A DNA stretch of 64,000 nt from an uncultured delta proteobacterium (GTDB lineage: Bacteria; Desulfobacterota; Binatia; UBA9968): contig CAVWLW010000056.1 in assembly GCA_963755715.1 (NCBI GenBank), forward strand, positions 69,454 through 133,453, read 5' to 3'. Positions 25-63,708 of this stretch are shown here, one piece after another (within the stretch, counting starts at the first letter, position 1; each line of letters begins with the position of its first letter). Made by a program: the position numbers and the translations under genes. The notes beneath the pieces are model-generated. The model saw nothing but the letters and a program-made list of their open reading frames with translations, had not been told where the DNA came from and searched no databases.

Positions 25-1041
25 ATGCTCCATAGTACAGATCGAATACTCTACGTCGGCACTGAAGATGGTCTTTATCTGGCTGAGCCGGATGGAAAAG
101 AATACAAATCACGCCCGTTGGCGCTCCAAGGCAAAGGGGTATTGAGATCACCGGTGCAGATTGACCGAGATAACCCGCGCCGCATCTACGCAGCCACGAG
201 TCGCTGTGGCATGCAGCGCAGCGAAGACGGTGGTCAGAGCTGGCGCGAGATCAACAACGGCATCCTTTATAAAGAAGCTTGGTGTGTGGTTCAGCATCCG
301 CAAAGCGCCGAGCTGTTTGTCGGCACCGGTCCGTCGTCCGTTTTCAAGAGCGAAGACGGCGGCGAGAGTTGGGTCGACTGCGAACAGCTCAGAGATTTGC
401 CCGAAACCATCGATTGGACTTTCCCACGACCGCCCCACGTGAGCCACGTCAAAGGTCTTGCGCTCAGGCCTGATGATCCGCTTGTCATCCTCGGCGCCAT
501 CGAAGAAGGCTGGATCGTTCGCAGTCAGGACGGCGGCAAGAGCTGGCAAAATATCAAAGAAGGTGTCGAGTTCGACGCTCACTCCGTCGCGGTGATGCCG
601 GACAATCCAGCCGTGGTGATCGCGACTTCCGGCCAAGGCGTATACAAGAGCACCAACGGCGGCGACAGTTTCGTCGAGTCCAGCAACGGACTCGATCGTC
701 GTTACATGGCGCAACTGGTCTGCCATCCGGCGCGACCCAAGGTGCTTTTTTCCGCCGCCGCCGCGGTGCCCCCGCCATTCTGGCGCCGGCCGGAAGGCGC
801 GGCCGCCGCTTTTTTTCGCAGCGACGACCAGGGAGAGTCCTGGCGACGACTTTCCGGCGGATTGCCGGAACATTTCAAAGCAGCGCCGCGCGCGACGGCG
901 GGCGATCCGGAGGAGGCCGACGCATTTTTCGTCGGTATGACCGACGGCACGATCTGGCTGAGTGAAAACGGCGGCGAATCGTTTCGCCAAATTGTTGGCG
1001 GTTTGCCTTCTGTGTTCAGTATTCGCGTCGCTTACCACTGA
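25..1041 (+). CDS. BNR/Asp-box repeat beta-propeller protein (WD40/YVTN/BNR-like)
   Basis: 338 aa with repeated SxDGGxSW Asp-boxes; AAAGGAG RBS upstream. Confidence 0.85.
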   Translation: MLHSTDRILYVGTEDGLYLAEPDGKEYKSRPLALQGKGVLRSPVQIDRDNPRRIYAATSRCGMQRSEDGGQSWREINNGILYKEAWCVVQHPQSAELFVGTGPSSVFKSEDGGESWVDCEQLRDLPETIDWTFPRPPHVSHVKGLALRPDDPLVILGAIEEGWIVRSQDGGKSWQNIKEGVEFDAHSVAVMPDNPAVVIATSGQGVYKSTNGGDSFVESSNGLDRRYMAQLVCHPARPKVLFSAAAAVPPPFWRRPEGAAAAFFRSDDQGESWRRLSGGLPEHFKAAPRATAGDPEEADAFFVGMTDGTIWLSENGGESFRQIVGGLPSVFSIRVAYH

Positions 1042-1181
1042 GCGCGCGAATAATTCATGAAAGCCAGTAAAGACTTCGACATAGCGTAAGGCGATGCGGA
1101 AGTCTGTAATCAAACGAGAAGTCCTGCCATGCCAAATGGCAAATCGTAAGCTTTGCAGCGCAAGTCATCGCCATTGTCGTT

Positions 1182-2150
1182 ATGCCACCTTCTCAAATTG
1201 AGATCGGCCTCTTGTTGCATACGCGCCATCTGATCCGTGACGGCGGCAGCGGCTCCCACGTAAGCGAACTGTGGAAAACTGCAGAGCGCGCCGATGAAAT
1301 GGGCTTCGATCATCTGTGGGTCGGCGACAGTCCGAGGTTGTCACTGCAAGACCGAGCCCACGCCGACTGCCTCACGATCACCGCGGCTTTGGCGGCGCGA
1401 ACGAACAAAATAAGGATCGGCACGGTGCCGCTGATCTTGGCGATGCGCAATCCGGTGTTGACGGCGCACAGCTTGGCAACCTTGGATGTGATCTCCGGCG
1501 GGCGCAGCATGATCGGAGTGAGCGCGGCGCATCAATATCCATTTGCCCAACGCGAGTTCGAAGCGTGCGGCGTGCCCTTTCACCAGAGGGCAGGCCGATT
1601 GAATGAATCGATTCAACTGCTGCGGCGGTTGTGGACCGAGCCCTCGTTTGCCTTCGAGGGAAAATATTATCGCTTCGAAGAGCTGGGCATCGAGCCCAAG
1701 CCGATACAGCGGCCGATTCCCATCTGGATCGCGGCTTCGGACAACGATAACGCTCTGCGCCGCGTCGCGCGTTTGGCCGACGGCTGGTTCACCGTAGCGC
1801 ATACGCCCGCCCAATTCGCTGCGCGGCGCCGCAAGATAGATCAGTATCTCAAAGAACAGGGCCGAGCTGATAAGATTATTCCTTCGCTGCTCTTCGCCAC
1901 CTTTCATTTGAGTTATGACACCGCGGCGGAGGCGGAGGGATGGAATCTTGCAGAGAAATATTTTCATCAGCCGCGCGCAAGGCTCGGCCATCTCAGCGCT
2001 TTCTTTGGCACGCCCCGCCAATGCGCGGAGCAACTGCGCGCCTATATCGATCGCGGCCTGACAGGCATCGTCGCTCGCTTCGTCGCCGACGATGCCCACG
2101 CGCAAATGCGTTTGATGCTCGAAGAGCTGCGACCCAGATTGTCGCTGTGA
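1182..2150 (+). CDS. LLM-class flavin-dependent oxidoreductase (luciferase-like)
   Basis: GFDHLWVGD, LAARTNKIRIGT, LATLDVISGGR, PKPIQRPIPIWIA motifs. Confidence 0.88.
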   Translation: MPPSQIEIGLLLHTRHLIRDGGSGSHVSELWKTAERADEMGFDHLWVGDSPRLSLQDRAHADCLTITAALAARTNKIRIGTVPLILAMRNPVLTAHSLATLDVISGGRSMIGVSAAHQYPFAQREFEACGVPFHQRAGRLNESIQLLRRLWTEPSFAFEGKYYRFEELGIEPKPIQRPIPIWIAASDNDNALRRVARLADGWFTVAHTPAQFAARRRKIDQYLKEQGRADKIIPSLLFATFHLSYDTAAEAEGWNLAEKYFHQPRARLGHLSAFFGTPRQCAEQLRAYIDRGLTGIVARFVADDAHAQMRLMLEELRPRLSL

Positions 2151-2254
2151 TCCGTGAGATGAATGAATCAAGTCTGCAAAGAAGGTCGCGCGATTTTGTG
2201 ATCGAGAATTGTTTTCTTCGTCTGGCAGCGAGGAATTGAGTTTCAGGAGGTAAT

Positions 2255-3278
2255 ATGGCGCGCTCGAGTAAGCTTTTAGTGGCGATGCAAGGCAAGGGAG
2301 TCTTTGTCGTCGATCTCGCGGAGCGGAGCGTTGTCTCCGGTCTCCATGATTGTATCGTTGTGGCGCCGAGTCCCGACAATGGCGAGACTTTTTTCGCGGG
2401 AACGGACAAGGGCCAGTACAAGAGCATCGATGGCGGTAGAAACTGGCAGCTCAAAGGATTGGAGCAATACAAGATCTTTTCCCTGGCGTTTCATCCGTCC
2501 GATCCGAAGACAATCTACGCCGGCACGGAGCCGGCGTTGCTCTTTCGCAGCAGCGACGGCGGCGAAACCTGGACGGAACTCGATGGTGTGAGAAAGCTGC
2601 CGGGACGCAGTAAATGGTGCTACCCCGCGCCGCCGTACATCGCGCATATCAAAGGCATCGCCATTCATCCCGAGGATCCGGAAGTGATGTACTGCTCGAT
2701 CGAGGAGGGCGGTGTGATTCAGAGCCTCGATGCCGGCGAGAGTTGGCGCTACGTGAGCAAAGGGCGAGGCCGAGACTTTTCGTCCGGTAAGCCGCGTCAC
2801 CGGAGTCTATCAAGATTGTCACGTGGTGCGCATCTCACCCCATGATCCGGACAGTCTTTTTCTGACAACCGGAGACGGCCTTTACCGCAGCGACGACTGC
2901 GGCAAGAGCTGGCGCAGGATCGATCGCGGTTACCGCATGAAAAAATATTTCGGCTCCGTCGTGCTTCATCCTGACGACCCGAAAGTCATCTATGCGACGG
3001 CCTCTGCCGCGCCGCCGAGCGGCGCGAAAAACGAAAGCTCGGTGTACAAGAGCACGGACGACGGCGTGAGTTTCAAAGAGATCGCCACCGAGATTCGCCC
3101 GCTCTATATCGTCGGATGGAACGGTCTGGCGATGGACCCGTTGGACGCCGACTCGCTTTATTTTGGCGCGGCGGACGGAAAGCTTTATAACAGCGCTGAC
3201 GGCGGTGAAAGCTGGCGCAAGCTCGACGTCGAGCTGCCCAGCGAGGGAAGAATTCGCACGATTGCATGCGCGCCATAA
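2255..3278 (+). CDS. BNR/Asp-box repeat protein, split by a frameshift near 2777
   Basis: ORFs 2255-2845 and 2823-3278 both carry Asp-boxes; removing one T from TTTT (2777-2780) joins them. Confidence 0.8.
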
Positions 3279-3366
3279 TCCCGCGCAAGCGCTCGGGATG
3301 GCGGGGTCGCGCCCGTCACTTTGCGTTCTTGGCATCGTGACGCAGGGAAAATGTAGGAGAACCAGC

Positions 3367-4581
3367 ATGGAAGCACCGGCTGATATTAAATGGACGGGAT
3401 ATTCGTTAGCCGAGCGCGACTGGCGCTGGCGGCGCGTGCGCGAGGGCGCCGCGCAGGCTGGCTTCGATTGCATCCTCGTGCCGCTCTGCGTCGATGGACG
3501 CAATTTACATCTCTCACTAGAGCAGGCGCGCGGCACGCGCTCGGATTGCCGCTTTCTCACTTGCCTCGACAACGCCGCAGTGATTTTGCCGAGCGACGGC
3601 CGCGAGCCAATCATTGTTTCTGACCAAGAGTCCGGCAACGACTGGGTGCCGGAGCCTCGGCCGGTGGAGAATTCCTGGGGCGAAAGCATGACGCGGGCGC
3701 TGTTGGACGCCGGTATGGAGCGCGCGCGCATCGGCGTCTCCGGCATTCGCCGCGGCTTTTATACCCACGGTCGGGCGTTTCACGGCGTCGTCAATCACAG
3801 CTCCTACGCGGAAGTGCTGCGCCGTTTGCCCAACGCGCGATTCGAGAACGCCACGGAAGTGGTCGGTCATGCGCGCTACGTCAAAAGTGCCGAGCAGATC
3901 GCCTGCCTTAGACGTGGCGCGGCGATCGCCGCGGCTGGCATCGACAAAATGATCGAGCTTGCCAAGCCCGGCATGGATGAGGGCTTGCTCTACACCCGTG
4001 TGATGCAGCGGATGGTCGGGCTGGGCAGCGAATATTATCCGATGGCTTTTTACAGCGGGCTGCACGGCGGCGGCCGACTGCCACGCTTCGAAGATCCGAC
4101 AGAAGGCAGAACGCTGCAACCGAATTATCGCATTGCCAACGAAGTGGACGCCGTGTTCGGCGGCCTGATCGCGCAGGAGCAGCAGCCGATTTTTCTTGGC
4201 CGGATTCCCGATGCCTGGAAGCCGGCGATCGACCTTCAGCGTGACATGTACTACGCCGCTTTAGAGCATCTGACACCGGGTCAGCCGTTCGCGCAGTTCA
4301 TGGATTTAGTCAATAGCTTCGGTGAAAAGCGCGGCATGAAAAGCCAACTGCTCATGCACGGGCGCGGTTACGGCGACGACGGCCCGCTCTTCACGCCGCA
4401 AAACCGCGGCGGGCGCAATCGCGACCTGCTGATCGAAAAAGATTGCGTGTTCATCGTCAAGCCGATTGCGCACAGCGCGGACGGAACATTCGATACCAGT
4501 TGGGGCGGCTGCGTGCTCGTGACGGAAAACGGCGGCGAGCCTCTGGTGAAGCGTACGCCGGGAATGGTGTCGATCACATAG
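3367..4581 (+). CDS. M24 (aminopeptidase P/creatinase fold) family protein
   Basis: RYVKSAEQI linker, HGRGYG, VLVTENG; ATG at 3367 after AGGAG. Confidence 0.8.
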   Translation: MEAPADIKWTGYSLAERDWRWRRVREGAAQAGFDCILVPLCVDGRNLHLSLEQARGTRSDCRFLTCLDNAAVILPSDGREPIIVSDQESGNDWVPEPRPVENSWGESMTRALLDAGMERARIGVSGIRRGFYTHGRAFHGVVNHSSYAEVLRRLPNARFENATEVVGHARYVKSAEQIACLRRGAAIAAAGIDKMIELAKPGMDEGLLYTRVMQRMVGLGSEYYPMAFYSGLHGGGRLPRFEDPTEGRTLQPNYRIANEVDAVFGGLIAQEQQPIFLGRIPDAWKPAIDLQRDMYYAALEHLTPGQPFAQFMDLVNSFGEKRGMKSQLLMHGRGYGDDGPLFTPQNRGGRNRDLLIEKDCVFIVKPIAHSADGTFDTSWGGCVLVTENGGEPLVKRTPGMVSIT

Positions 4582-4584
4582 AAC

Positions 4585-4685
4585 GAGTCTAGAGTTTGGC
4601 GTCTGGAGTCTAGGGTTTACAGAAAATCGGAAACAGCCGGCTTCCTTCTGCCTAACGCTAGACCCTAGACTCCAGACACGAGACC
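4585..4685. repeat. Intergenic inverted repeat built of 7-nt units
   Basis: GTCTGGAGTCTAGGGT (4601-4616) pairs perfectly with ACCCTAGACTCCAGAC (4662-4677). Confidence 0.8.
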
Positions 4686-4698
4686 GAAGGAGTTAATC

Positions 4699-5889
4699 AT
4701 GCCTTGGACAGCACCGCCGGGAGCCGGCGCGACGGTACACATCTGGAACGGTTATTCGCTTGGGGAGCGCGACCGGCGCTGGAAAGCTGTGAGAGAAAAT
4801 GCCGGTAAGGCCGGCTTCGACTGTATTCTAATCCCGTTGGGCAATGGAGCGGACGGACGCTACATGACGCAGCTCCGATGCTCGGCCATGGCACTGCCAA
4901 CCGACGGCCGCGCGCCGATTATTATCGCTGACCGCAGCTCCACTAACGCATGGGTGCCGGAGCCTTGGCAAACCGGCCGCGAGTGGGCCGAACCGATGGC
5001 CGAAGCACTGCTTGATCTCGGCATGGAGCGCGCGCGCATCGGCGTCGCGGGCTTGAAAGGCGGGTCTGTCACGCACTGCGACTCGATCGATGGCGTAGTG
5101 AACCATACCGCGCTCGAATATGTGAAGAGCAAAGTGCCGAACGCGACTTTCGATGATGCGACGGACGTTATCGGCTTCGCGCGCTACGTCAAAAGCGCAG
5201 AAGAAATCGCGTTTGTGCGAGAATCGGCGCAGGTCGCGTCAGCGGGACTCGATGAGTTGATCAAGCTCGCGCGTCCCGGTGTGGACGCCGGCGCGCTCTA
5301 TTCCGACGCGCTGTCACGCCTGCTCGAGCTGCGCAGTGAATATTTTCCATTGACTCTGACCATCGATTCCATCGGCGCGCAAAAACCCAAACGCTATGTC
5401 AATCCGCCGATTGGGCGGCGCCTCGAGCCCAACGCGCTGATCACCAATGAAGTCAACGCGATTCGCGGCGCGCAACTGACCCAAGTGTGCCAACCGATAT
5501 TGCTCGGCAAAATTCCCGACGAGTGGAAACCGGTGATCGCGCTGCATAAAGAAGTGTATGAAGCGGGCTTGGCGATGATCAAGCCGGGCACGACGTTCGG
5601 CGCGTTGAGCGATTTCGTAAATGGCTTCGGCGCCAAACGTGGAATGAAAACAGTCATGCAGCTGCAAGGCTGCGGCTATGGCGACGACGGGCCGCTGTTC
5701 ACCGCGAAGGCGCGTAGCGACCGTGTGCGCGATATACCGATTGAAAAAGGCAACGTGTTCGTCTGGAAGCCACTGGCGATGTCGGCCGATGAAAAGATTC
5801 AATTCAGTTTCGGCGGGCCGGTGATCGTCGGGGAGCGTGGCTGCGAAACCCTTTTTAAGCGCGAGCACGGGATGGTGGCGATTGCTTGA
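4699..5889 (+). CDS. M24 family protein, tandem paralog of 3367-4581
   Basis: Colinear with the upstream gene (GYSLxERD, GFDCIL, RYVKSAE, GYGDDGPLFT). Confidence 0.8.
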   Translation: MPWTAPPGAGATVHIWNGYSLGERDRRWKAVRENAGKAGFDCILIPLGNGADGRYMTQLRCSAMALPTDGRAPIIIADRSSTNAWVPEPWQTGREWAEPMAEALLDLGMERARIGVAGLKGGSVTHCDSIDGVVNHTALEYVKSKVPNATFDDATDVIGFARYVKSAEEIAFVRESAQVASAGLDELIKLARPGVDAGALYSDALSRLLELRSEYFPLTLTIDSIGAQKPKRYVNPPIGRRLEPNALITNEVNAIRGAQLTQVCQPILLGKIPDEWKPVIALHKEVYEAGLAMIKPGTTFGALSDFVNGFGAKRGMKTVMQLQGCGYGDDGPLFTAKARSDRVRDIPIEKGNVFVWKPLAMSADEKIQFSFGGPVIVGERGCETLFKREHGMVAIA

Positions 5890-25488: not shown

Positions 25489-25531
25489 TGTTCAATATTG
25501 GACATTAGTTCCTTTTGCGACGTGGTAGCAT
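25489..25531 (+). promoter_or_regulatory. Crp-type palindrome promoter A1 (desaturase)
   Basis: TGTTCAATATTGGACA-N21-TAGCAT; a second TGTT-N8-GACA at 25452. Confidence 0.75.
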
Positions 25532-30047: not shown

Positions 30048-30090
30048 CGTTCAATATTAGACAGTAGCCCTTTTCGACTCAAGGTAAGGT
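30048..30090 (+). promoter_or_regulatory. Crp-type palindrome promoter A2 (ferredoxin)
   Basis: CGTTCAATATTAGACA-N21-TAAGGT. Confidence 0.78.
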
Positions 30091-34631: not shown

Positions 34632-34674
34632 ATGCTGGGCTTACTCAGCCACAGTTGCTGTCTAATATTGAACA
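34632..34674 (-). promoter_or_regulatory. Crp-type palindrome promoter A3
   Basis: TGTTCAATATTAGACA-N21-CAGCAT on the minus strand. Confidence 0.72.
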
Positions 34675-34842: not shown

Positions 34843-34885
34843 GGTTCAATATTAGACCGCAATCTCGCCTCAACCAACCTAAGCT
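34843..34885 (+). promoter_or_regulatory. Crp-type palindrome promoter A4
   Basis: GGTTCAATATTAGACC-N21-TAAGCT. Confidence 0.78.
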
Positions 34886-37668: not shown

Positions 37669-37711
37669 GGTTCAATATTAGACCGAAATCTCATCAGAGT
37701 CAGCGTAAGTT
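37669..37711 (+). promoter_or_regulatory. Crp-type palindrome promoter A5 (no clear ORF immediately downstream)
   Basis: GGTTCAATATTAGACC-N21-TAAGTT. Confidence 0.75.
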
Positions 37712-38018: not shown

Positions 38019-38061
38019 TGTTCAATTTTAGACAGATTTTCACCCGGAGGCATAGTAATTT
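38019..38061 (+). promoter_or_regulatory. Crp-type palindrome promoter A6 (hybrid kinase)
   Basis: TGTTCAATTTTAGACA-N21-TAATTT. Confidence 0.75.
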
Positions 38062-40326: not shown

Positions 40327-40449
40327 CGACCGTTTGGTCGAAAGTCGCGACGCTTTCGACGAGCTTTCTGTGATTGCTTTCCTGACGGATTAAAAATCCA
40401 TTCAAAACATTTAGTTTTTTCTTGATACAAGTCGTGGCACAAGGCTTGC
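40327..40449 (+). promoter_or_regulatory. sigma54 promoter with tandem enhancer B1
   Basis: CGACCGTTTGGTCG; TGGCAC-AAGGC-TTGC starts 108 nt later. Confidence 0.8.
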
Positions 40450-40952: not shown

Positions 40953-43379
40953 ATGTTGTATTGGTCGCTGATGTTTCTTCTTGTTGCTCTAACCGCCGGC
41001 CTGCTGGTCATTGCTTTCACTGCGGCCGGCGCGCGAAAGATTTTGCCGGGGCCCAATCCACACCCCCGCTGGGACTCGGAGACTCATAATTCAACTTTGT
41101 TCAGACGAATGCGAGTGAGTGCTCTGGCGGCTCGGAGAATCCGTAGTACCCGCTTCGCCGTTCCACATTGGCGGAGACGCGTCCTTAACCTTGCAATTTG
41201 CACAACGCCGATTATAGCCGCTCTCGTGTCAATCGGGTTTTATCACGTCTATTTCGACCGAAGTGATTTGCCTGACATAGAAGCATTCGCCCGCTTTGAG
41301 TTTCCTACCATCGGCACCGTCTACGATGCCAACGGCCAGCCGCTCATGGAACTGGCAAAAGAGTACCGAAAGATCGTCAAATATGAGGACATCCCGCCGA
41401 TTGTTCGCGATGCAATCCTCGCCACCGAAGATAAACACTTCTTCTCACATAGCGGCGTTGACTATTCGGTAATTCCTCGCGTGCTGGGCAAAGTCAGGAT
41501 TCGAGCTCTGGCGGCACGCCTCGTAGGACTCGGACAGCAAGACGAAAATGAAAGTCCGGCGCTTCTCCCGCAAGGCGGATCGACGATCACTCAACAGCTC
41601 GTGCGGGGACATTTTCTCAAAAACCTAACGACGAAAGAAAACAGCAACGAGCTCCGCTATGCCGGACTCTTTCCTCGCTCGCTGTCAAGCCTGGTCGGCG
41701 CGCGCAGTGTCAACATGCTGGTTCGCAAGCTGGAGGAGATTCGCCTGTCGTTGTGGATCGAAGAAGAGATGCAGAAGCGTTTCGGTTCGAAACGCAACGC
41801 TAAGGAGGAAATTCTCGCCCGCTACGCCAGTTTCATTTACATGGGAAATGGTCAATACGGATTCCCGACGGCAGCCGAATACTATTTTGGCCGGTCTCTC
41901 GCCACGTTCACCGCCGATGACGCCGACAAGGCAGCGCTGCTCGCAGGCATCGCGAAGTCGCCGCGTTACTACGCCCCCAATGCGAAGGACAGCTCAAGGG
42001 TGTTGCGCCGCAGAAATCAAACACTGGCGCTTATGGCGGCAAACGGTTTCATTCCCCAGGACAATGTGAATTCAGCCGAGCAGCGCCCGCTTCAAGTGAT
42101 CGCGCCGCGCAAAGACAAGATGTTTCAGGCGCCCGCGGTCCTTGGAACTATCCTTCAAGGGCTCAGAGGCCGTGGCGACCGCAGCGTTGAAGATCTTCTG
42201 CAGGGACGTATCCAGGTTTACTCGACGGTGGATCTCCGGGTGCAGCAAATTGCCAACGAGGCGCTCGAGCGCGGCCTCGAGCTTTACGAGAAACGACACC
42301 CGGGCGCCAAAGGGATAATCCAAGGCTCTGTCGTTGTGCTACGGAACCGCGATGCGAGCATTCTCGCCGAAACTGGCGGTCGTCAGTTTTACCAGGACCG
42401 CTCCGCCGCATACAGCGACTTTAACCGCGTCATCAAGTCCCTGCGGCAACCTGGGTCAACGATGAAACCTATGGTCTATCTTGCGGCGTTTCGACAGGGT
42501 GGCGTTAATCTGGAAACCATGGTCCCCGACGAAGCGATCGGTGTTCCGGATGCAGAGAAACAGAGTACAAAATGGATCTCAAACTATGATGATCAATTCC
42601 GAGGCATGATTCCGGTCCGCGAGGCGCTCGCGGAATCCAGAAACACCGTCGCGATTTGGCTAACAGAGCAGATCGGGATCGGCAGTGTTTTGCGAACATC
42701 GCAAACGTTAGGGATCCAGACACGGTTGCAGCCCTACCCCACAACGGCGTTGGGCGCGTCCGAAGTGAATTTGCTGGAGCTGGCCAATGCGTACCGCACC
42801 ATGGCATCGGGGATGTCCGCCGAGCCGTATGTGATCCGAAAAATCGTTAGCGATTCGGGCGAGGTGGTAGCCGACAACGAACACGCGGGGACCCCGGTCG
42901 ATGTCGACGACTCCGCGCTTGCGCTCATTCAGGAAGGCCTTCGCGGTGTCGTGCGTATGCCCACCGGCACGGCTCATACGCTTGACTCGAGCGTTTTCCC
43001 ACTCGCGGTCATGGGCAAGACGGGGACGACAAACGAGTTCAGAGATGCGCTCTTTGTCGGCTCGACCTTCGGCCTCGAGGGAATCACCGTCGCCGTTCGT
43101 ATAGGCTTCGACGACAACCGTTCCCTTGGAACGACAGAGACCGGCGGCCGGGTCGCGCTGCCGGTGTTTAAAGAACTCATGCTCAGAGTGTATCGCGAAA
43201 AGCTGGTAGGCCCAGCGCCGACATTCCCGGCGCAAATGGAACAGAACATTAATGATTATCTGGCAGGCGGCTCGATCGCGAAGGGCGAATCCGTAACTGT
43301 ACTTAACCCTTCAAATCCGCCCGCGCCGTTTTCGGTCCGCTTCACGGATCGTGGCGAAGCGATTCAAGAACGGCCGTAG
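40953..43379 (+). CDS. Class A penicillin-binding protein (transglycosylase/transpeptidase) with DUF1328-like N-terminus
   Basis: EDKHFFSHSGVD, GGSTITQQL, RKLEE, STMK, SRN, KTGT. Confidence 0.9.
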   Translation: MLYWSLMFLLVALTAGLLVIAFTAAGARKILPGPNPHPRWDSETHNSTLFRRMRVSALAARRIRSTRFAVPHWRRRVLNLAICTTPIIAALVSIGFYHVYFDRSDLPDIEAFARFEFPTIGTVYDANGQPLMELAKEYRKIVKYEDIPPIVRDAILATEDKHFFSHSGVDYSVIPRVLGKVRIRALAARLVGLGQQDENESPALLPQGGSTITQQLVRGHFLKNLTTKENSNELRYAGLFPRSLSSLVGARSVNMLVRKLEEIRLSLWIEEEMQKRFGSKRNAKEEILARYASFIYMGNGQYGFPTAAEYYFGRSLATFTADDADKAALLAGIAKSPRYYAPNAKDSSRVLRRRNQTLALMAANGFIPQDNVNSAEQRPLQVIAPRKDKMFQAPAVLGTILQGLRGRGDRSVEDLLQGRIQVYSTVDLRVQQIANEALERGLELYEKRHPGAKGIIQGSVVVLRNRDASILAETGGRQFYQDRSAAYSDFNRVIKSLRQPGSTMKPMVYLAAFRQGGVNLETMVPDEAIGVPDAEKQSTKWISNYDDQFRGMIPVREALAESRNTVAIWLTEQIGIGSVLRTSQTLGIQTRLQPYPTTALGASEVNLLELANAYRTMASGMSAEPYVIRKIVSDSGEVVADNEHAGTPVDVDDSALALIQEGLRGVVRMPTGTAHTLDSSVFPLAVMGKTGTTNEFRDALFVGSTFGLEGITVAVRIGFDDNRSLGTTETGGRVALPVFKELMLRVYREKLVGPAPTFPAQMEQNINDYLAGGSIAKGESVTVLNPSNPPAPFSVRFTDRGEAIQERP

Positions 43380-43453: not shown

Positions 43454-43496
43454 CGTCCAATATTAGACTGCAACTCGTTTTGGATCGGCCTAAGCT
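43454..43496 (+). promoter_or_regulatory. Crp-type palindrome promoter A7
   Basis: CGTCCAATATTAGACT-N21-TAAGCT. Confidence 0.78.
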
Positions 43497-43917: not shown

Positions 43918-44041
43918 CGACTCTTTGGTCGAAAGTTTCGACGCTTCCGACGAGACTTTAATGATTTTCTTTTTCACATCTTAAGAAATCCATAGGTAAA
44001 TTCAGTCTTTCACTCACAACGCGGTACGGCACAAAAGTTGC
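43918..44041 (+). promoter_or_regulatory. sigma54 promoter with tandem enhancer B2
   Basis: CGACTCTTTGGTCG; CGGCAC-AAAAG-TTGC starts 109 nt later. Confidence 0.78.
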
Positions 44042-44364: not shown

Positions 44365-44407
44365 CGTCTGGTATTGAACAGCAACTTATTTCAACCTGAC
44401 CGATAAT
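44365..44407 (+). promoter_or_regulatory. Crp-type palindrome promoter A8 (csbD)
   Basis: CGTCTGGTATTGAACA-N21-GATAAT. Confidence 0.62.
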
Positions 44408-45853: not shown

Positions 45854-45893
45854 ATCACGCCGATTCGTTAACCGCCGTTCTCTAATCAATCTT

Positions 45894-46017
45894 CGACCTT
45901 TTGGTCGAGCGATTCGACCGCCGCGACGGTTCTTTTATCCTTGTTTCTCTAAAGCCCGAAAGAAGCAGTCGGAAACTACAGCCTTTTTCGAACAACAAGT
46001 TCTGGCACACAACCTGC
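45894..46017 (+). promoter_or_regulatory. sigma54 promoter with tandem enhancer B3
   Basis: CGACCTTTTGGTCG; TGGCAC-ACAAC-CTGC starts 109 nt later. Confidence 0.8.
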
Positions 46018-46061
46018 TCCTACACAGTTAAGATATAGATAACCCAAATAAAGGAGAGACT

Positions 46062-46142
46062 ATGGACACTCTATTGATCGTTATTTTACTGGTGCTTTTG
46101 TTCGGTGGTGGGGGCTGGGGATATTCTCGTTGGCGCCGGTAG
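46062..46142 (+). CDS. 26-aa membrane micropeptide MDTLLIVILLVLLFGGGGWGYSRWRR (DUF3309-like)
   Basis: AAGGAG RBS; identical copy at 52022. Confidence 0.75.
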   Translation: MDTLLIVILLVLLFGGGGWGYSRWRR

Positions 46143-46247
46143 CGAGAGTTCATTGATCCGGCTCTCAGTGTGGCTAACGTTGTAACGCAAATCGGGAGAG
46201 CACAAATCACGTCGCAACAAAACGCGGCGAAGAAAGGAGAAACTGAC

Positions 46248-46322
46248 ATGAACAGTATTTTCTACATAGTTGGTGTTATTGTCGTAGTGGTTTTCGTCGC
46301 CGGCTTTTTCGGACTGAGGTAG
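46248..46322 (+). CDS. 24-aa membrane micropeptide MNSIFYIVGVIVVVVFVAGFFGLR
   Basis: AAAGGAG RBS; paralog at 63591 differs mostly at synonymous sites. Confidence 0.75.
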   Translation: MNSIFYIVGVIVVVVFVAGFFGLR

Positions 46323-46366
46323 CCCCGGAGCCTCACGAGGGACTTTCCCGATATTTTTTTCAAACC

Positions 46367-46409
46367 TGTCTAATACTGGACGGCAATCCCTGGCGAGTCA
46401 GCATAAGTT
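46367..46409 (+). promoter_or_regulatory. Crp-type palindrome promoter A9
   Basis: TGTCTAATACTGGACG-N21-TAAGTT. Confidence 0.75.
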
Positions 46410-46462
46410 TCAAATCATTCTGGGCATAGGGTTTCACTCCTGACGTTAACCGAGGAGTTGAA

Positions 46463-47043: not shown

Positions 47044-47240
47044 AGGCTGACTGTTCCAACGGCCAAAAAGCAGGGCTATCGGGAACCGAGAAAATCTGGG
47101 GGCTAAGAATTTCGACAGCAGGCTTTCTAGAAGAATATTCCAAATTGTGTTGATCAGTGCTCTGGTGGTGCTCGGGATCCCTCGCTCGGCGGTATCGAGT
47201 GGATTAGCCATTTTGGCTCCAAAAACGGAGGAAAAATATT

Positions 47241-47471
47241 ATGCGTAGCAATCCGATAACGCTTGTTGGAATCGCTCTCATCATCCTTGGGATAGTGGCC
47301 TTTGCCTACCAAGGCATCACCTATACCAGCCGCGAAAAGATTATCGATATCGGCCCCATCCAAGCCACCGCCGACACCCAGAAGAGCATTCCGCTCTCAC
47401 CTCTCTTGGGGGGATTGGTGCTTGTAGGGGGGATCGCTTTGGTTGTGGTTGGAGCCAAGACATCGTCTTAG
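47241..47471 (+). CDS. DUF3185-like small membrane protein, copy 1
   Basis: YQGITYTSREKIIDIGPIQA. Confidence 0.8.
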   Translation: MRSNPITLVGIALIILGIVAFAYQGITYTSREKIIDIGPIQATADTQKSIPLSPLLGGLVLVGGIALVVVGAKTSS

Positions 47472-51664: not shown

Positions 51665-51858
51665 AATGATTTGGCAAAATACTTCAGGAATCAGATTGCC
51701 GTCGTGAGCTACTTAACTGATCATTATTCAACAGACTGCTTAAGCAGAACGGGTTCAGTCAACGATCGCATGATTTGTTGCTGCGTGAGAACGTAAATTC
51801 TCGTCGTTCGTGATTGCATTTATCAATCTTTTGAACTCACCCTCCACCTGATCTAATT

Positions 51859-51982
51859 CGACCTTTTGGTCGAGCGATTCGACCGCCGCGACGGTTCTTT
51901 CATCCTTGTTTCTCTAAAACTCGAAAGAAGCAGCCGGAAATTACAGCCTTTTTCGAACAACAAGTTCTGGCACACAACCTGC
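51859..51982 (+). promoter_or_regulatory. sigma54 promoter with tandem enhancer B4
   Basis: CGACCTTTTGGTCG; TGGCAC-ACAAC-CTGC starts 109 nt later. Confidence 0.8.
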
Positions 51983-52021
51983 TCCTCCACAGATATAGAT
52001 AACCCAAATAAAGGAGAGACT

Positions 52022-52102
52022 ATGGACACTCTATTGATCGTTATTTTACTGGTGCTTTTGTTCGGTGGTGGGGGCTGGGGATATTCTCGTTGGCGCCGGT
52101 AG
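52022..52102 (+). CDS. 26-aa membrane micropeptide, copy 2
   Basis: Identical to 46062-46142. Confidence 0.75.
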   Translation: MDTLLIVILLVLLFGGGGWGYSRWRR

Positions 52103-52319
52103 CGCCCGCGGGCATCTACCTGCTCCGCGCTTGGAACAAAAAACCGATCTGAAAGGGCAGCAGCTTGCTGCGAACTCTCTTCGTCAGAGGATTCGATACC
52201 GATCTGCGGGTGGCGGGATAGTTCATTGATCCGGCTCTCAGGGTGGCCAACCTTGTAACGCAACTCGGTTGTGCACAACTCACGTCGCAACAAACAGCGA
52301 TGAAAGATTAGGAGAATTT

Positions 52320-52867: not shown

Positions 52868-52990
52868 CGACCTTTTGGTCGAGAGTTTCGACGCTTCTAA
52901 CGAACCGTTTCTTCGTTTCCCTCTGACAACCTCAAGAAGTTATCGGAAACGCAGCCTTTTCCCTGTGACACGTTGTGGCACAGATAGTGC
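52868..52990 (+). promoter_or_regulatory. sigma54 promoter with tandem enhancer B5
   Basis: CGACCTTTTGGTCG; TGGCAC-AGATA-GTGC starts 108 nt later. Confidence 0.8.
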
Positions 52991-53272: not shown

Positions 53273-53315
53273 CGTCCAAAATTAGACAGCAGTCCCCGAC
53301 TCGTCAGCGTACCGT
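53273..53315 (+). promoter_or_regulatory. Crp-type palindrome promoter A10
   Basis: CGTCCAAAATTAGACA-N21-TACCGT. Confidence 0.72.
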
Positions 53316-54370: not shown

Positions 54371-54544
54371 ATGCTTTGGGCTATCTTTGCGATGCTTGTG
54401 GTCCTGGGCGTAGTGAGCTTCCTCGCTTCCTATACGTTGGTTGGCGGGGTCATGCAAATTTTACTGATTAGCGCTCTGGTGGTGCTCGGGATCAATCGCA
54501 TTCGAGCGGTATCGACTCAAATTCGGCGGTCTCAAGTGGATTAG
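54371..54544 (+). CDS. lmo0937/DUF5670-like small membrane protein
   Basis: MLWAIFAMLVVL...SYTLVGGVMQILLISALVV. Confidence 0.65.
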   Translation: MLWAIFAMLVVLGVVSFLASYTLVGGVMQILLISALVVLGINRIRAVSTQIRRSQVD

Positions 54545-54577
54545 TCATTTGGGTTAAAAAACGAAGGAATAAACACG

Positions 54578-54808
54578 ATGCGTATTACGCTGATCACGCT
54601 TGTTGGAATCGCTCTTATCGTTCTTGGGATCGTGGCCTTTGCCTACCGAGGAATCCCTTACACTAGCCGCGAGAAGGTTATCGATGTTGGCGCCCTCCAG
54701 GCCAGCGGTGACATCCGGAAGACCATCCCGATGTCACCGCTGTTGATAGGGTTGGCCCTTGTGAGTGGCGCAGCGCTGATCGCAGTTGGCTCCAGGAAGT
54801 CGTTTTAG
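54578..54808 (+). CDS. DUF3185-like small membrane protein, copy 2
   Basis: YRGIPYTSREKVIDVG. Confidence 0.8.
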   Translation: MRITLITLVGIALIVLGIVAFAYRGIPYTSREKVIDVGALQASGDIRKTIPMSPLLIGLALVSGAALIAVGSRKSF

Positions 54809-58449: not shown

Positions 58450-58611
58450 AGACCCAGAGGATGGAGCGCTGAACAAGCGCCTGGCTACTCATGAGAAACG
58501 TGAGCGGAGCCAGGCGCTTTTGGTCATTGCCCTGGTGGTGCCAGTGATTACTCTCGTTCAGGGACGAAGAATATACTAGCCGTTTCGGCTTTTAACGAAG
58601 GAAGGAATTTT

Positions 58612-58842
58612 ATGGCTATCAATTCGATAACGCTTGTTGGGATCGCTCTCATCGTGTTAGGGGTCGTGGCTCTTGCGTACCAGGGCATCACCTACACAAG
58701 CCGCGAGACGGTGATCGATATTGGCCCCATCCATGCCACCGCCGACACCCAGAAGACCATCCCGCTTTCCCCTCTACTGGGCGGGTTGGCGCTTGCAGGC
58801 GGGATCGTCTTGGTCGTGGTTGGAGCCAAGAAATCGTCTTAG
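58612..58842 (+). CDS. DUF3185-like small membrane protein, copy 3
   Basis: YQGITYTSRETVIDIGPIHA; preceded by an lmo0937-like 3' remnant. Confidence 0.8.
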   Translation: MAINSITLVGIALIVLGVVALAYQGITYTSRETVIDIGPIHATADTQKTIPLSPLLGGLALAGGIVLVVVGAKKSS

Positions 58843-59306: not shown

Positions 59307-59349
59307 ATGCTGCGCCGGATCGACTACCGTTGCTGTCCAATATTGAACA
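59307..59349 (-). promoter_or_regulatory. Crp-type palindrome promoter A12
   Basis: TGTTCAATATTGGACA-N21-CAGCAT on the minus strand. Confidence 0.72.
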
Positions 59350-59727: not shown

Positions 59728-59976
59728 ATGCCACGCAAGCGCGACGAAAACGAAACGGCCTTCGATACCCTTCAAGAAATTCTCAGACGCGATGCCGAGC
59801 GAGACGGCATTCCGGTGTCACCGAAGCCCAAGCCGGAAAAGATGGCTGTTAGGGTGAAGGCGGGACGGAAGGGCGGGAAGATCGGGGGAAGCGGTGATTG
59901 GGTCCTCATATGCCGAATAGCCATCTATCCAACAAACCCCTTACAACGGTCATTTTTTCGAAATACAATTGGGTGA
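59728..59976 (+). CDS. Small basic hypothetical protein (GRKGGKIGG), probably truncated
   Basis: The KGG motif is followed by sequence that looks unrelated. Confidence 0.4.
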   Translation: MPRKRDENETAFDTLQEILRRDAERDGIPVSPKPKPEKMAVRVKAGRKGGKIGGSGDWVLICRIAIYPTNPLQRSFFRNTIG

Positions 59977-59978
59977 TC

Positions 59979-60155
59979 ATGGTATATCGAAGGCTGAAAG
60001 ACTCCCTAGATTTGGACTGGCATTTTCATACTAAATGCCCGAGTTGGCCAGAACTCGGCGTAATTGACGTACAGCTTAACAGCCCTGGTAGTGATCGCAT
60101 CTGTCCAGAATGCATAGAATTGGATGCCACAATGCCCACTGAAAAACCCCACTGA
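59979..60155 (+). CDS. Small His/Cys zinc-binding-like protein
   Basis: WHFHTKCPSWP...ICPEC. Confidence 0.5.
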   Translation: MVYRRLKDSLDLDWHFHTKCPSWPELGVIDVQLNSPGSDRICPECIELDATMPTEKPH

Positions 60156-60311
60156 CGATTCAGCAACACATTAATACCCGACTACCAAAGAAAAAGGAAT
60201 GTCGCTCGCGCGGTTCCGCTCGCCGCACGCTGATAACCCGCGTGATCTGTTCATCCTAGTGTCTCCTGTACGGGAGGCGTTGTTCCATAGCACAAGGCAT
60301 TCTCTGTAATT

Positions 60312-60435
60312 CGACCATTTGGTCGATCGTTTCGACTCTTTCGCCGATCCGTCCCTCCGTTTCCCTCCGGCGCGTTAAATAATCTCCAGCAATATGCGGT
60401 ACCTACCTGATCGTGAGCACTGGCACGTAAGCTGC
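60312..60435 (+). promoter_or_regulatory. sigma54 promoter with tandem enhancer B6 (DUF3309-crp)
   Basis: CGACCATTTGGTCG; TGGCAC-GTAAG-CTGC starts 109 nt later. Confidence 0.8.
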
Positions 60436-60483
60436 TCCTTTTTACTCACTGGGAAAAGAAGAATTGAAGGAAGGTGACTGACT

Positions 60484-60633
60484 ATGAGCCTGATACTGTT
60501 GATCTTATTAGTTCTATTTCTGGTGGGAGGTCTGCCTAACTGGGGTTATCACAGGTTTGGCTTTGCACCCTCGGGCATCGCCGGTGTGGTGCTGCTAATC
60601 GTTGTTGCTCTGCTCTTGACCGGCCGGCTCTAA
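60484..60633 (+). CDS. DUF3309 family small membrane protein (49 aa)
   Basis: GGLPNWGYHRFGFAPSG...LLLTGRL. Confidence 0.8.
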   Translation: MSLILLILLVLFLVGGLPNWGYHRFGFAPSGIAGVVLLIVVALLLTGRL

Positions 60634-60749
60634 ACGGGTCGCAACATGCGCATAAGGTTAGAGTAATTTAAGGCATAGGGTTTCATTCCTGAGGTTGCAA
60701 AGTGGTTGCGCGTTCTTGGGCGGCGCGCATCGGGTTTGGGTGTGAACCG

Positions 60750-61430
60750 ATGATTCAACAGACTCCCGAAGCGGAACGCTTCAAACAGCAAATGCGCGAT
60801 TCGTTGCAGCACGAGACGCTGAACTCTCGCGCCGTGACGATCGCGCGGCACGCGAATGTTTACACCTGCGGCGACCAGGACGAGATGGTCTATTTCATCG
60901 AGACCGGCCAGATCAAACTGCTTCTGCTCTCGCCCGAAGGTAAAGAATGTCTGCTGGCCATCCATAGCGGTGGAGATATTTTCGGCGAGCTGTGTTTAGC
61001 CGGGTTGGGCGCACGTCACGAAACCGCCGTGGCAATGAAACAAACGAAGATAAAACAAATACCCTGTGCCCAGTTCTTTGCGCGTCTGAGCCGCGACTCT
61101 TTGTCTGAGGGATTTGTACGCTACCTGGCGGTGCGCATCGCCGACCAACAGCACGTCATCGCCAATCTGGTGACGGCGGACAGCGAACAGCGGCTGGGCC
61201 AAACGTTGTTACAATTGGCCCGCACCATGGGCAAGAAGGACCCGCGCAGCATCCGCATCGAGCTGAAGATTTCCCATGATGAATTATCCTCGATGGTAGG
61301 CACGACGCGGCCTCGGATCAGCTTTTTCATGCAGAGATTTCGCAACCTGGGATTGATCGAAACCAATAGCGATCATTTTCTCATCATCAAAGAAAACAAA
61401 CTCACCGATTACCTCGCGCAGATCGCTTAG
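60750..61430 (+). CDS. Crp/Fnr family transcriptional regulator
   Basis: cNMP-like domain (GDIFGE, RHETA), HTH SHDELSSMVGTTRPRISFF. Confidence 0.92.
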   Translation: MIQQTPEAERFKQQMRDSLQHETLNSRAVTIARHANVYTCGDQDEMVYFIETGQIKLLLLSPEGKECLLAIHSGGDIFGELCLAGLGARHETAVAMKQTKIKQIPCAQFFARLSRDSLSEGFVRYLAVRIADQQHVIANLVTADSEQRLGQTLLQLARTMGKKDPRSIRIELKISHDELSSMVGTTRPRISFFMQRFRNLGLIETNSDHFLIIKENKLTDYLAQIA

Positions 61431-61563
61431 AAAGGCCGTGCCGCCCAACCCAGTCGGCATTTACTTGCAACAAATCCTGCCGCGTTCCTATGTTTTAATA
61501 GTCAGGAAAAAAGAGGTTTTCGGGAAGAATCCAATTTAAAGAAGTAATCAAGGAGACATACCG

Positions 61564-61737
61564 ATGTCATTTGGAATTTACCTCGTCGGATACATCATAC
61601 TGATCGCGGGCCTGGCAATCGGAGCCAATCTGCTCCACGTGCCGATGCAGTGGATCGGGGTGGGCAGTCTGTGTTTGGCCGGCGTGGCGATCGTCCATGG
61701 CGTGACGGCAACTCGGCAAAAGGATCCACAGTCCTAG
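61564..61737 (+). CDS. 57-aa two-TM membrane microprotein
   Basis: MSFGIYLVGYIILIAGLAIGANLLHVP...TRQKDP; AAGGAG RBS. Confidence 0.72.
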   Translation: MSFGIYLVGYIILIAGLAIGANLLHVPMQWIGVGSLCLAGVAIVHGVTATRQKDPQS

Positions 61738-61891
61738 AGGACAGCATCTCTCGTGCCGGCGTTACCACGAACAGCGCGAGGTTAGCCTCTTCTCCGGCTA
61801 GAGTAGGAGGACGCGCTGATGATTCAGCCGCCGGCTTTTCTGCCGCAGCAACAGCCTGCGACTGATCGCAATCGAATGCATGTGTCGTTTT

Positions 61892-62437
61892 CTATTGGCC
61901 CGATGGCAGTTCGAGTCGAACCGTGGCGGTGCCCGATTCTATCATATCCAAAGCTTTTGCCGCCGCCTCCGATAGATCGATGATACGATTTCCTGCAGCG
62001 GGTCCGCGATCGGTAATCTCTACTTCCACCGATTTTCCGTTGGCGAGATTAGTAACCTTGATCTTGCTACCGAACGGTAGGCTTGGATGTGCGGCTGTAA
62101 GCCCCGCTTGATCATAAATTGTTCCACTGGCCGTCTGCTTCCCTTGATGTTGCGCTCCATACCACGAAGCTTCCCCGGTTTGTGGCAACTTCGCAGGCAC
62201 AGCGGGATTTTTTTTAGCCGTCGGTGGAACGGGCGCAGGCTGGACACCGCTTGAAGTGTTGGGAGCGGCAGGTTGCGCCGGAGTTTCGGCCGGCGCGGCG
62301 ATATCCGACGGACGTTGCAGCAATGCGCAGCCCTGAAAAAGCACTAGACCTAAACACATCGTTAATAGGCACGGACGCCTGTCGGATAAACCGCGGACCA
62401 CGAATTTAAGCAGCGAAAAAGATAAATCATTCGCCAT
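61892..62437 (-). CDS. rlpA: RlpA-like lytic transglycosylase lipoprotein
   Basis: GEASWYG, TASG, TAAHPSLPFGS, DRGP, IIDLS. Confidence 0.85.
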   Translation of the reverse strand: MANDLSFSLLKFVVRGLSDRRPCLLTMCLGLVLFQGCALLQRPSDIAAPAETPAQPAAPNTSSGVQPAPVPPTAKKNPAVPAKLPQTGEASWYGAQHQGKQTASGTIYDQAGLTAAHPSLPFGSKIKVTNLANGKSVEVEITDRGPAAGNRIIDLSEAAAKALDMIESGTATVRLELPSGQ

Positions 62438-62603: not shown

Positions 62604-62646
62604 TGTTCAGTATTAGACAGCATCACCCGCCGAGTGAGCGCACGAT
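62604..62646 (+). promoter_or_regulatory. Crp-type palindrome promoter A13 (LapA-like)
   Basis: TGTTCAGTATTAGACA-N21-CACGAT. Confidence 0.72.
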
Positions 62647-63146: not shown

Positions 63147-63269
63147 CGACCTTTTGGTCGATGCGCTCGACGTTCCTGACGAGCCTCATCTTCTTCATCC
63201 TGAACGCCTAAAATAAATCTAAGGGAGATCCAATGGTTTTCTTACCAAAGGGTCTGGCACACAATCTGC
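63147..63269 (+). promoter_or_regulatory. sigma54 promoter with tandem enhancer B7
   Basis: CGACCTTTTGGTCG; TGGCAC-ACAAT-CTGC starts 108 nt later. Confidence 0.8.
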
Positions 63270-63488: not shown

Positions 63489-63590
63489 GACATCACGCGA
63501 AGTCGCTAGCCTGCGCTTATTTTTGAAATACTGTTATGGGCATCTGGCTCAACGGTAAATCCGCTCACGCGAAAGAAAGGAGAAACTGCC

Positions 63591-63665
63591 ATGAATAATA
63601 TTTTCTACATAATCGGCGTTATCGTCGTAGTGGTATTCGTTGCCGGCTTTTTCGGGCTGAGATAG
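63591..63665 (+). CDS. 24-aa membrane micropeptide MNNIFYIIGVIVVVVFVAGFFGLR
   Basis: Paralog of 46248-46322; AAAGGAG RBS. Confidence 0.75.
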   Translation: MNNIFYIIGVIVVVVFVAGFFGLR

Positions 63666-63708
63666 CCCCGGAGCCTTGCGACGGTCTTCCCCGATATTTA
63701 TTCAAACC

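Follow-up and report, generated by a model that had tools for sequence, protein, structure and literature searches.

A candidate sigma-54-to-Crp cascade with palindromic target promoters in an island of envelope and stress genes from an uncultured Binatia-lineage bacterium

The window examined here is a stretch of 64,000 nucleotides (nt), the final 64 kb of contig C56 (GenBank CAVWLW010000056.1) of an uncultured soil bacterium from the Binatia lineage, filed as a delta proteobacterium. The draft genome comprises 7.4 Mb with 56% G+C in 76 contigs and is 93.6% complete. The window holds a gene for a Crp/Fnr-family regulator, here called crp, which follows a gene for a small DUF3309 membrane protein and a predicted sigma-54 promoter (B6). 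It also holds six further predicted sigma-54 promoters (family B) and 13 copies of a palindrome (motif A). The best-supported reading of this arrangement, and one that we consider probable on sequence evidence, is a cascade in which sigma-54-driven expression of crp feeds a second tier of motif A promoters. We infer the first tier from sequence, synteny, and RNA contigs and the second from co-occurrence, adjacency, and geometry. This wiring had been proposed in an earlier reading of the same DNA from its sequence alone (the sequence-only reading), and it gained independent support at both tiers.

Exact matches to TGGCAC-N6-TGC occur six times in the window, where 0.56 are expected, and six were reached in none of 100 shuffles. 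A seventh family B site (44027) starts with CGGCAC. All seven sites lie on the plus strand between 40 and 64 kb. At B6, GG and GC dinucleotides stand exactly 10 nt apart, the spacing of a sigma-54 promoter, and transcription is predicted to start near 60446-60448. An upstream activator site (UAS), composed of TCGACC-N4-GGTCGA and further TCGAC-like repeats, begins 108-109 nt upstream of the -24 element at all eight copies in the genome. This composite of UAS and sigma-54 element is found at the seven window sites and at one site on contig C14, and nowhere else in the 7.4 Mb. The genome encodes rpoN (contig C34) and 31 strong sigma-54 activator genes (PF00158), none of them on C56.

The claim that B6 precedes DUF3309 and crp with no terminator between the two genes was borne out by the promoter element, the Pfam assignments, and a terminator scan. 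No terminator-like site was found in the DUF3309-crp spacer, whose predicted fold is not better than that of shuffled sequences (z 0.77). The listed open reading frame (ORF) of crp begins at a GTG codon (60702), with an alternative ATG at 60750. The start is probably the ATG, since all 79 homologues recovered from related loci align from residue 1-4 of that frame.

All or part of the stretch was present in 20 public sequencing runs, six of which are soil RNA libraries. We compared four RNA runs, from four studies, over positions 59900-62000 as assembled contigs. Run X15 contains a 338-nt contig (depth 46) that matches 60465-60779 with no mismatches and one inserted G after 60644, and that carries adapter sequence at its 60465 end. 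Further contigs cover 60577-60742 (X19), 60615-60779 (X17), and 60645-60779 (X20). The DUF3309 stop codon is bridged by two of these contigs, those of X15 and X19, and the X15 contig also spans the entire spacer and 30 nt of crp. A second X15 contig (61221-61706) links the 3' end of crp with a 57-aa ORF. The contig ends at 60779/60780 fall where paralogous crp sequences of other organisms enter the assembly graph. No contig was found over 59900-60464 in any of the four RNA runs, and the 215 nt of query upstream of 60465 were uncovered in all four, which is what a start at B6 predicts. Among the stretches without RNA cover in 59900-62000, only this block is interpreted.

It is possible, but unlikely, that crp is transcribed mainly from a sigma-70-type promoter of its own in the spacer (TAAGGT, 60653-60658), in which case B6 would serve DUF3309 only and there would be no cascade. 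The spacer hexamer conforms to TAnnnT, the motif A promoters have a homologous hexamer, and one RNA contig starts at 60645. However, that contig begins upstream, not downstream, of the hexamer, and RNA contigs run unbroken from 60465 across the spacer. No -35 element or activator site accompanies the hexamer. A scan for sigma-70 consensus promoters found none in 60100-61700, and counts over 44-64 kb were at chance level.

The history of the spacer also bears on this alternative. BLASTN of 60400-60800 against four relatives gave three colinear blocks. Block 1 comprises the promoter, DUF3309, and a leader box (79-84% identity); block 2 is a 30-nt signal-peptide region (60698-60727, 90-93%); and block 3 is the start of crp. 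Relative to these genomes, the window lacks about 108 nt between blocks 1 and 2 and about 265-565 nt between blocks 2 and 3. In the relatives, DUF3309 is followed by a lipoprotein gene (about 75 aa), and the leader box lies in the 5' leader of that gene. The ancestral order was therefore sigma-54 promoter, DUF3309, lipoprotein, one more ORF in some relatives, and crp, and the window lost the middle. Read from these alignments, the spacer is a deletion scar, and TAAGGT and the leader box are left over from the leader of the lost lipoprotein gene. Moreover, the hexamer is often non-TAnnnT or absent in DUF3309-linked copies (e.g., L007, L008, L015, L072, and L074), which argues against a maintained promoter in the spacer. 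The sequence-only reading had correctly noted TAAGGT and a leader box without a palindrome at this place; the usual spacing between palindrome and hexamer, which it gave as 21 nt, is 22 nt by our count. We rejected the idea that TAAGGT and the leader box are a promoter that lost its palindrome.

The lipoprotein gene (MKKL...GQSGC...GYEINA...) is preceded by a conserved 5' leader, about 90 nt long, that includes the leader box and is seen in L006:3127-3226, L007:1073-1174, L013:27-127, L015:3259-3359, L071:2903-3003, and others. Truncated copies lie in the window at 46425-46462 and 60674-60697. RNAalifold folds the leader into two nested helices (AGGGU/ACCCU around a TTACTTGA hairpin), with a double change in only 2 of 21 pairs. 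The leader could be a cis-regulatory RNA, a lead with little covariation behind it. No Rfam family reached its gathering score anywhere in the window. The two literature matches listed for DUF3309, as far as their excerpts go, contain no mention of its function.

The product of crp has both parts of the Crp/Fnr superfamily, the barrel (cNMP_binding, PF00027, 1.9e-12, residues 47-130 of the 242-aa frame) and the helix-turn-helix (HTH_Crp_2, PF13545, 3.6e-13), and it aligns over its full length with a solved actinobacterial Crp (5.8e-20). It scores well below the NCBIfam cut-offs of the named equivalogs NtcA (58.8 bits vs 245), CRP (55.9 vs 266), and Fnr (49.4 vs 228). The recognition helix region TTRPRIS.FMQRF is nearly invariant across 73 homologues, and at the base-contacting positions the protein has RPRIS where the solved actinobacterial Crp has RETVN. 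A comparison of the cAMP pocket (RTS in the solved protein, RHE here) was dropped as too weak to inform on the effector.

HTH_Crp_2 exceeds its cut-off at two places in the genome, the window gene and a copy on C14 (C14:22300-22980; L081:2300-2980). In the C14 copy, residues 1-25, 25-113, 114-188, and 189-226 lie in different frames, with three frameshifts, and a motif A site follows at C14:23030. Unless the assembly is wrong, this copy looks like a pseudogene. Because it is split over three reading frames, the window crp is the only intact Crp-family gene of the genome. The 79 related crp loci (69-94% identity, often several copies per genome) come from metagenome-assembled genomes (MAGs) labeled Candidatus Binatia, 'delta proteobacterium', and Acidobacteriota (Blastocatellia, Pyrinomonadaceae). 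Identical Crp loci also occur under different phylum labels (L030/L032 and L010/L011; Verrucomicrobia vs Deltaproteobacteria, apparently from one sample series). These mixed labels are probably binning noise and call for caution with taxon labels.

Conservation of the sigma-54 link was assessed across the 79 crp homologues. Ten of them have the strict UAS/sigma-54 composite on the same strand and no more than 1.5 kb upstream; the number is 12 with L001 (UAS off the contig) and L007, where just the -24/-12 element is present. A quick maximum-likelihood tree (IQ-TREE; 77 rows, without the truncated or frameshifted rows L052, L072, and L074) places the B-linked crp genes and the window gene in, or adjacent to, a single clade whose 10 rows are all B-linked (SH-aLRT support 95). 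The B-link label, defined before we asked about clustering, needs one change on the tree compared with a mean of 10.1 in shuffles, although tests of this kind are inflated by near-copies. Conservation of the sigma-54 link is therefore a feature of one Crp orthologue group and not of the whole family.

The eighth composite points to a likely activator. On C14, a dodecin gene precedes the eighth UAS (983), which is paired with CGGCAT-N6-TGC; an OmpA-like gene and the genes for an sCache kinase (2153-3904) and a REC-AAA-HTH_8 activator (3905-5278) follow. Among 31 sampled genomes of the window's family, an orthologue of the activator (at least 69% identity) is present in 16 and the composite pattern in nine. 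Where both occur on one contig (G000, G206, G351, G367, and G368), the composite lies 2.3-4.0 kb upstream of the activator gene on the same strand in all five cases. In the Crp-negative genomes G206, G351, and G367, this composite is the only one in the genome. This synteny suggests that the C14 kinase/activator pair is likely the activator of regulon B, an autoregulated core to which the island promoters, including that of crp, would have been recruited.

At the second tier, motif A is a 14-bp palindrome with the consensus GTYCAATATTRGAC, present 13 times in the window (11 on the plus strand and 2 on the minus strand). It is preceded by a ATAATTCTTTTCAAA-like sequence and directly followed by AGCAAYCC, with a TAnnnT hexamer further downstream. 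Across 77 sites from related loci, palindrome and hexamer are 22 nt apart in 37 and 21-23 nt apart in 50. Class II activator sites of Crp/Fnr proteins are centered at -41.5. If the hexamer is taken as the -10 element, the palindrome is centered near -41.5 with no -35 element present, so that motif A would occupy the class II activator position. The six commonest forms of the palindrome do not occur in the 8.4 million papers and preprints searched.

Four family B promoters and motif A sites stand in tandem on the plus strand (44027/44366, 46003/46368, 52976/53274, and 63255/63710), with B 298-455 nt upstream of A and a small ORF between them. No terminator-like site was found on the plus strand between B and A in any of the four pairs. 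The alternation of A and B promoters described in the sequence-only reading is thus confirmed for B2, B3, B5, and B7. With no terminator between the two promoters, the downstream genes can take both inputs, a feed-forward layout.

Motif A is also associated with crp across genomes. Over the 516 kb covered by the 79 crp loci, a looser motif pattern gave 78 matches, and 53 loci had at least one; the chance estimate for its 192 variants of the 14-mer is below one match. Motif A is enriched more than 100-fold around crp homologues, and it lies within 200 nt after the crp stop codon in 24 of the 79 loci. A sample of 200 other genomes from across the phylum yielded no match to this Crp. In a sample of the class, it was present in three of eight other members of the window's family and in none of 142 others, and we therefore tested co-occurrence within families.

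In the window's family (31 genomes), where a genome was Crp-positive if it had a match at E ≤ 1e-30 and the exact motif was GTYYAATATTRGAC, the motif was present in 13 of 16 Crp-positive genomes and 5 of 15 Crp-negative genomes; these counts include G354, flagged as unpublished, which is positive for both. The five motif-bearing Crp-negative genomes have one strand hit each (G206, G356, and G365), two (G363), or fourteen (G364). A reversed control pattern gave almost no matches. In an acidobacterial family around the Crp-bearing genome G371, the motif was present in 12 of 15 Crp-positive genomes and in none of 16 Crp-negative genomes. Pooled over both families, this amounts to 25 of 31 Crp-positive vs 5 of 31 Crp-negative genomes. 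The composite B pattern, in contrast, was found in none of the 31 acidobacterial genomes. Thus, Crp with motif A is a unit common to both phyla, whereas the sigma-54 tier is lineage-specific. Co-occurrence of both motifs with this Crp clade, a check put forward in the sequence-only reading, accordingly holds for motif A in two phyla and for motif B in one Crp clade only.

The acidobacterial copies of the Crp/motif A module (L026, L033, L035, L056, L063, L065, L069, and others; G371) share 69-82% protein identity with the window, and one 9.5-Mb acidobacterial genome has up to 10 Crp matches and 33 motif strand hits. From sequence comparison, these copies suggest horizontal spread and paralogue expansion. 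A literature search for Binatota with Crp or sigma-54 returned no paper naming Binatota among the matches listed.

There is also a small chance that motif A is bound by another regulator and that crp is cargo traveling with the island. The conserved module does exceed the palindrome, extending into the ATAATTCTTTTCAAA sequence upstream and AGCAAYCC downstream, and G364 has the motif without a close Crp. However, the co-occurrence of Crp and motif replicates in two phyla, and the site recurs directly after crp. The 5-N4-5 palindrome at about -41.5 is the textbook geometry of Crp/Fnr proteins, and within the island part of the window no helix-turn-helix regulator other than Crp could be recognized: the 50 ORFs scanned over 25-64 kb included no other recognizable DNA-binding regulator. 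Still less probable is that Crp binds motif A as a repressor over the -35 position, such that the sigma-54 tier would turn the island off. The site has TAGACA, a sequence similar to TTGACA, at its 3' end, but this hexamer stands 21 nt from the -10 hexamer, which would be too far for a usual -35 element, and tandem B and A promoters before the same genes fit joint activation better. Finally, although the island has duplicated blocks such as 45892-46231 vs 51857-52304, it is very improbable that the A and B modules are mere segmental-duplication copies without a regulatory role, since copies other than B3/B4 are only about 60-77% alike yet keep the functional letters and exact spacings, and the modules are kept in many genomes, motif A in two phyla.

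Several observations weigh against the proposed cascade. At the first tier, the X15 contig reaches 30 nt into crp, below the 31-letter rule for bridging the start codon, and assembled contigs show no strand, start, or level, with DNA carry-over possible in RNA libraries. The TAnnnT hexamer in the spacer could still serve as a weak promoter. There is no sigma-54 module upstream of 67 of the 79 crp homologues. The strict composite pattern is absent from 9 of the 16 genomes with an activator orthologue, and G357 and G364 have the pattern with no activator orthologue at E ≤ 1e-120. With 31 strong sigma-54 activators in the genome, the assignment of the activator rests on synteny. At the second tier, related genomes are not independent samples, and hence we give no P value for the co-occurrence. 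The exact motif is absent from 6 of the 31 Crp-positive genomes (G215, G361, G370, G376, G399, and G403); sites with one mismatch are present in G215, G361, and G370, and G215 has three of these on its crp contig, one of them directly after crp. Conversely, G364 (87% complete) has its 14 strand hits and no close Crp even at E 1e-5.

As a mechanism, the cascade from sigma-54 through Crp to motif A would begin with the C14 kinase/NtrC-type pair (2153-5278), whose activator would bind the site of TCGACC-N4-GGTCGA and TCGAC repeats that eight sigma-54 promoters carry about 110 nt upstream. The promoters switched in this way would include that of its own operon and B6. B6 would drive DUF3309 and then, by read-through of the terminator-free 116-nt spacer, crp, in an operon with the 57-aa membrane protein. 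A Crp dimer would bind GTYCAATATTRGAC (GTCCAATATTGGAC-type sites), centered about 41.5 nt upstream of the presumed start, and would act as a class II activator at the 13 window promoters and about 10 elsewhere. Its targets would encode envelope, oxidative-stress, proteolysis, and signaling functions.

The gene content of the window fits such a role. G+C drops to 50-54.5% from about 24 kb to the window end. All gene families named in the sequence-only reading were matched by Pfam, namely desaturase, FtsH, MlaC, diguanylate cyclase, hybrid kinase, penicillin-binding protein (PBP), BON, superoxide dismutase, ferritin, and LapA; its description of envelope, oxidative defense, proteolysis, and signaling genes therefore stands. 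Behind A or B promoters lie the desaturase, an operon of a ferredoxin-like protein, FtsH, and a zinc-ribbon protein, MlaC, the GAF hybrid kinase, PBP1, the BON protein, the LapA-domain protein, and many small membrane proteins. The same block also holds superoxide dismutase, ferritin-like proteins, an iron permease, and a PAS-GGDEF cyclase, and C14 has, in addition, genes for a ferritin-like and an SPFH protein as well as a second PAS-GGDEF gene behind an A site. Judged by gene families, this content is compatible with a program of envelope and oxidative stress. The features of the window are listed in Table 1.

Table 1. Positions of the predicted promoter elements and of the crp operon in the window
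Feature	Position	Strand	Basis
Motif A, upstream of fatty-acid desaturase gene	25490..25503	+	
Motif A, upstream of Fer4 protein/FtsH operon	30049..30062	+	
Motif A, reading leftwards	34660..34673	-	
Motif A, upstream of DUF3309 paralogue and MlaC	34844..34857	+	
Motif A	37670..37683	+	
Motif A, upstream of GAF hybrid histidine kinase	38020..38033	+	
Motif A	43455..43468	+	
Motif A, weaker (GTCTGGTATTGAAC), GATAAT 22 nt downstream, tandem with B2	44366..44379	+	
Motif A with TAAGTT and leader box, upstream of 64-aa lipoprotein gene, tandem with B3	46368..46381	+	
Motif A, upstream of BON-domain protein, tandem with B5	53274..53287	+	
Motif A, reading leftwards, upstream of 40-aa lysine-rich ORF	59335..59348	-	
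Motif A, upstream of LapA-domain protein	62605..62618	+	
Motif A, tandem with B7, contig end	63710..63723	+	
B1 sigma-54 element, then small ORFs and PBP1 (40953-43379)	40435..40449	+	
B2 sigma-54 element, CGGCAC variant	44027..44041	+	
B3 sigma-54 element, then 26-aa DUF3309-like peptide ORF	46003..46017	+	
B4 sigma-54 element, 95% duplicate of B3	51968..51982	+	
B5 sigma-54 element	52976..52990	+	
B6 UAS: palindrome TCGACCATTTGGTCGA (60311-60326), then TTCGAC and CGCCGA repeats	60311..60347	+	repeat family, genome pattern search
B6 -24/-12 element TGGCACGTAAGCTGC, TGGCAC-N5-CTGC	60421..60435	+	exact pattern match
DUF3309 small membrane protein, 49 aa, first gene of operon	60484..60633	+	Pfam PF11752, 5.4e-16
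Spacer, 116 nt: TAAGGT 60653-60658, leader box CATAGGGTTTCATTCCTGA 60674-60692, lipoprotein signal-peptide fragment 60698-60727	60634..60749	+	
Crp/Fnr-family regulator, 226 aa, recognition helix TTRPRISFFMQRF	60750..61430	+	Pfam cNMP_binding, HTH_Crp_2
57-aa membrane protein ORF, probably last gene of operon, no Pfam match	61564..61737	+	RNA contig joins crp 3' end
B7 sigma-54 element, then 46-aa zinc-ribbon-like ORF	63255..63269	+	

The island is assembled from repeated cassettes. The 26-aa ORF (MDTLLIVILLVLLFGGGGWGYSRWRR) after B3 and B4 (46062-46142 and about 52020-52100) resembles the N-terminal half of DUF3309, and the two cassettes are 95-100% identical. In the relatives L007 and L008, this ORF replaces DUF3309 as the first ORF behind the sigma-54 promoter. 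Duplicated blocks pair 45892-46231 with 51857-52304 and 46230-46359 with 63573-63702, and a gene for a 76-aa membrane protein is present in three copies (73%; 47186-47471, 54523-54808, and 58557-58842). The segment 57462-58449 is a glutamine- and lysine-rich low-complexity coding region with many overlapping periodic repeats of 9-27 nt, and its 301-aa frame matched no Pfam family. Upstream of the island, positions 200-4600 carry repeated units of about 39-45 nt that code for S-x-D-x-G-x-S-W-like motifs (BNR/Asp-box-like) in several large ORFs.

A broader interpretation, which we offer tentatively and hold to be clearly less probable than the cascade itself, is that Crp and motif A form a portable stress regulon of two phyla of uncultured soil bacteria, represented by Binatia-like MAGs and by Acidobacteriota. 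In the lineage of the window, a crp paralogue would have been captured into the DUF3309 operon of a resident kinase/sigma-54 system while the other paralogue decayed, which would place about 25 promoters under a single envelope- or stress-sensing two-component switch. The tandem promoters might then act as a feed-forward gate into survival of desiccation or starvation, and the effector need not be cAMP. Binatia-like bacteria and soil Acidobacteriota are abundant yet largely uncultured, and to our knowledge their gene regulation is poorly known. The locus offers a candidate circuit that is complete and testable: a sensor kinase paired with a sigma-54 activator and its predicted site, a Crp with a defined 14-bp motif, and predicted targets among which genes for the envelope, oxidative stress, proteases, and c-di-GMP are prominent. 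The motifs can serve directly for predicting stress regulons across hundreds of MAGs and for interpreting soil metatranscriptomes. A second tier that crosses phyla beneath a lineage-specific first tier may also illustrate how a regulon can be re-plugged beneath a new master switch.

The sequence-only reading had likened the arrangement to MrpB and MrpC of Myxococcus xanthus, in which MrpC is a regulator of development. As described in an excerpt of the source, MrpB is a sigma-54 activator that binds two sites upstream of mrpC, and MrpC is a Crp/Fnr protein with at least four sites in its own promoter, where it competes with MrpB (PMC10701913). Compared with that excerpt, the architecture is alike: sites for an NtrC-type activator and a sigma-54 promoter precede a Crp/Fnr-family gene that would control many stress or development genes. 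The autoregulation is not alike. No motif A, even a weak one, was found in 60250-60480, which includes the UAS and promoter of B6, or before the activator operon; with the UAS and promoter of crp free of motif A, there is no sign of negative autoregulation of the MrpC kind. The systems also differ in their DNA motif and in that crp here stands behind DUF3309 in an operon. The candidate activator here is a response regulator with a partner kinase. The likeness, compared by layout, thus appears to be only architectural.

Like Escherichia coli class II CRP/FNR promoters, the motif A promoters would combine a dimeric Crp/Fnr fold with a 14-bp 5-N4-5 palindrome that resembles the FNR box and lies 22 nt before the presumed -10 hexamer; the half-site, however, is GTYCA/TRGAC and not TTGAT or TGTGA. 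FixJ is not known to be a sigma-54 activator, and the targets of the FixK2 cascade are respiration and denitrification genes. The FixLJ-FixK2 (-NnrR) cascade of Bradyrhizobium, as excerpted from PMC6710368, is similar in that a two-component system turns on a CRP/FNR-type regulator of a regulon, whereas the targets here are envelope and stress genes. In Pseudomonas syringae, HrpR/S and sigma-54 likewise control a second-tier transcription factor, HrpL, with a promoter motif of its own (excerpt of PMC5263251), but the HrpL tier is an extracytoplasmic function (ECF) sigma factor, and here it would be a Crp-type activator. Set beside these systems, the kind of circuit is already known, and what appears to be new is the Crp clade together with motif A.

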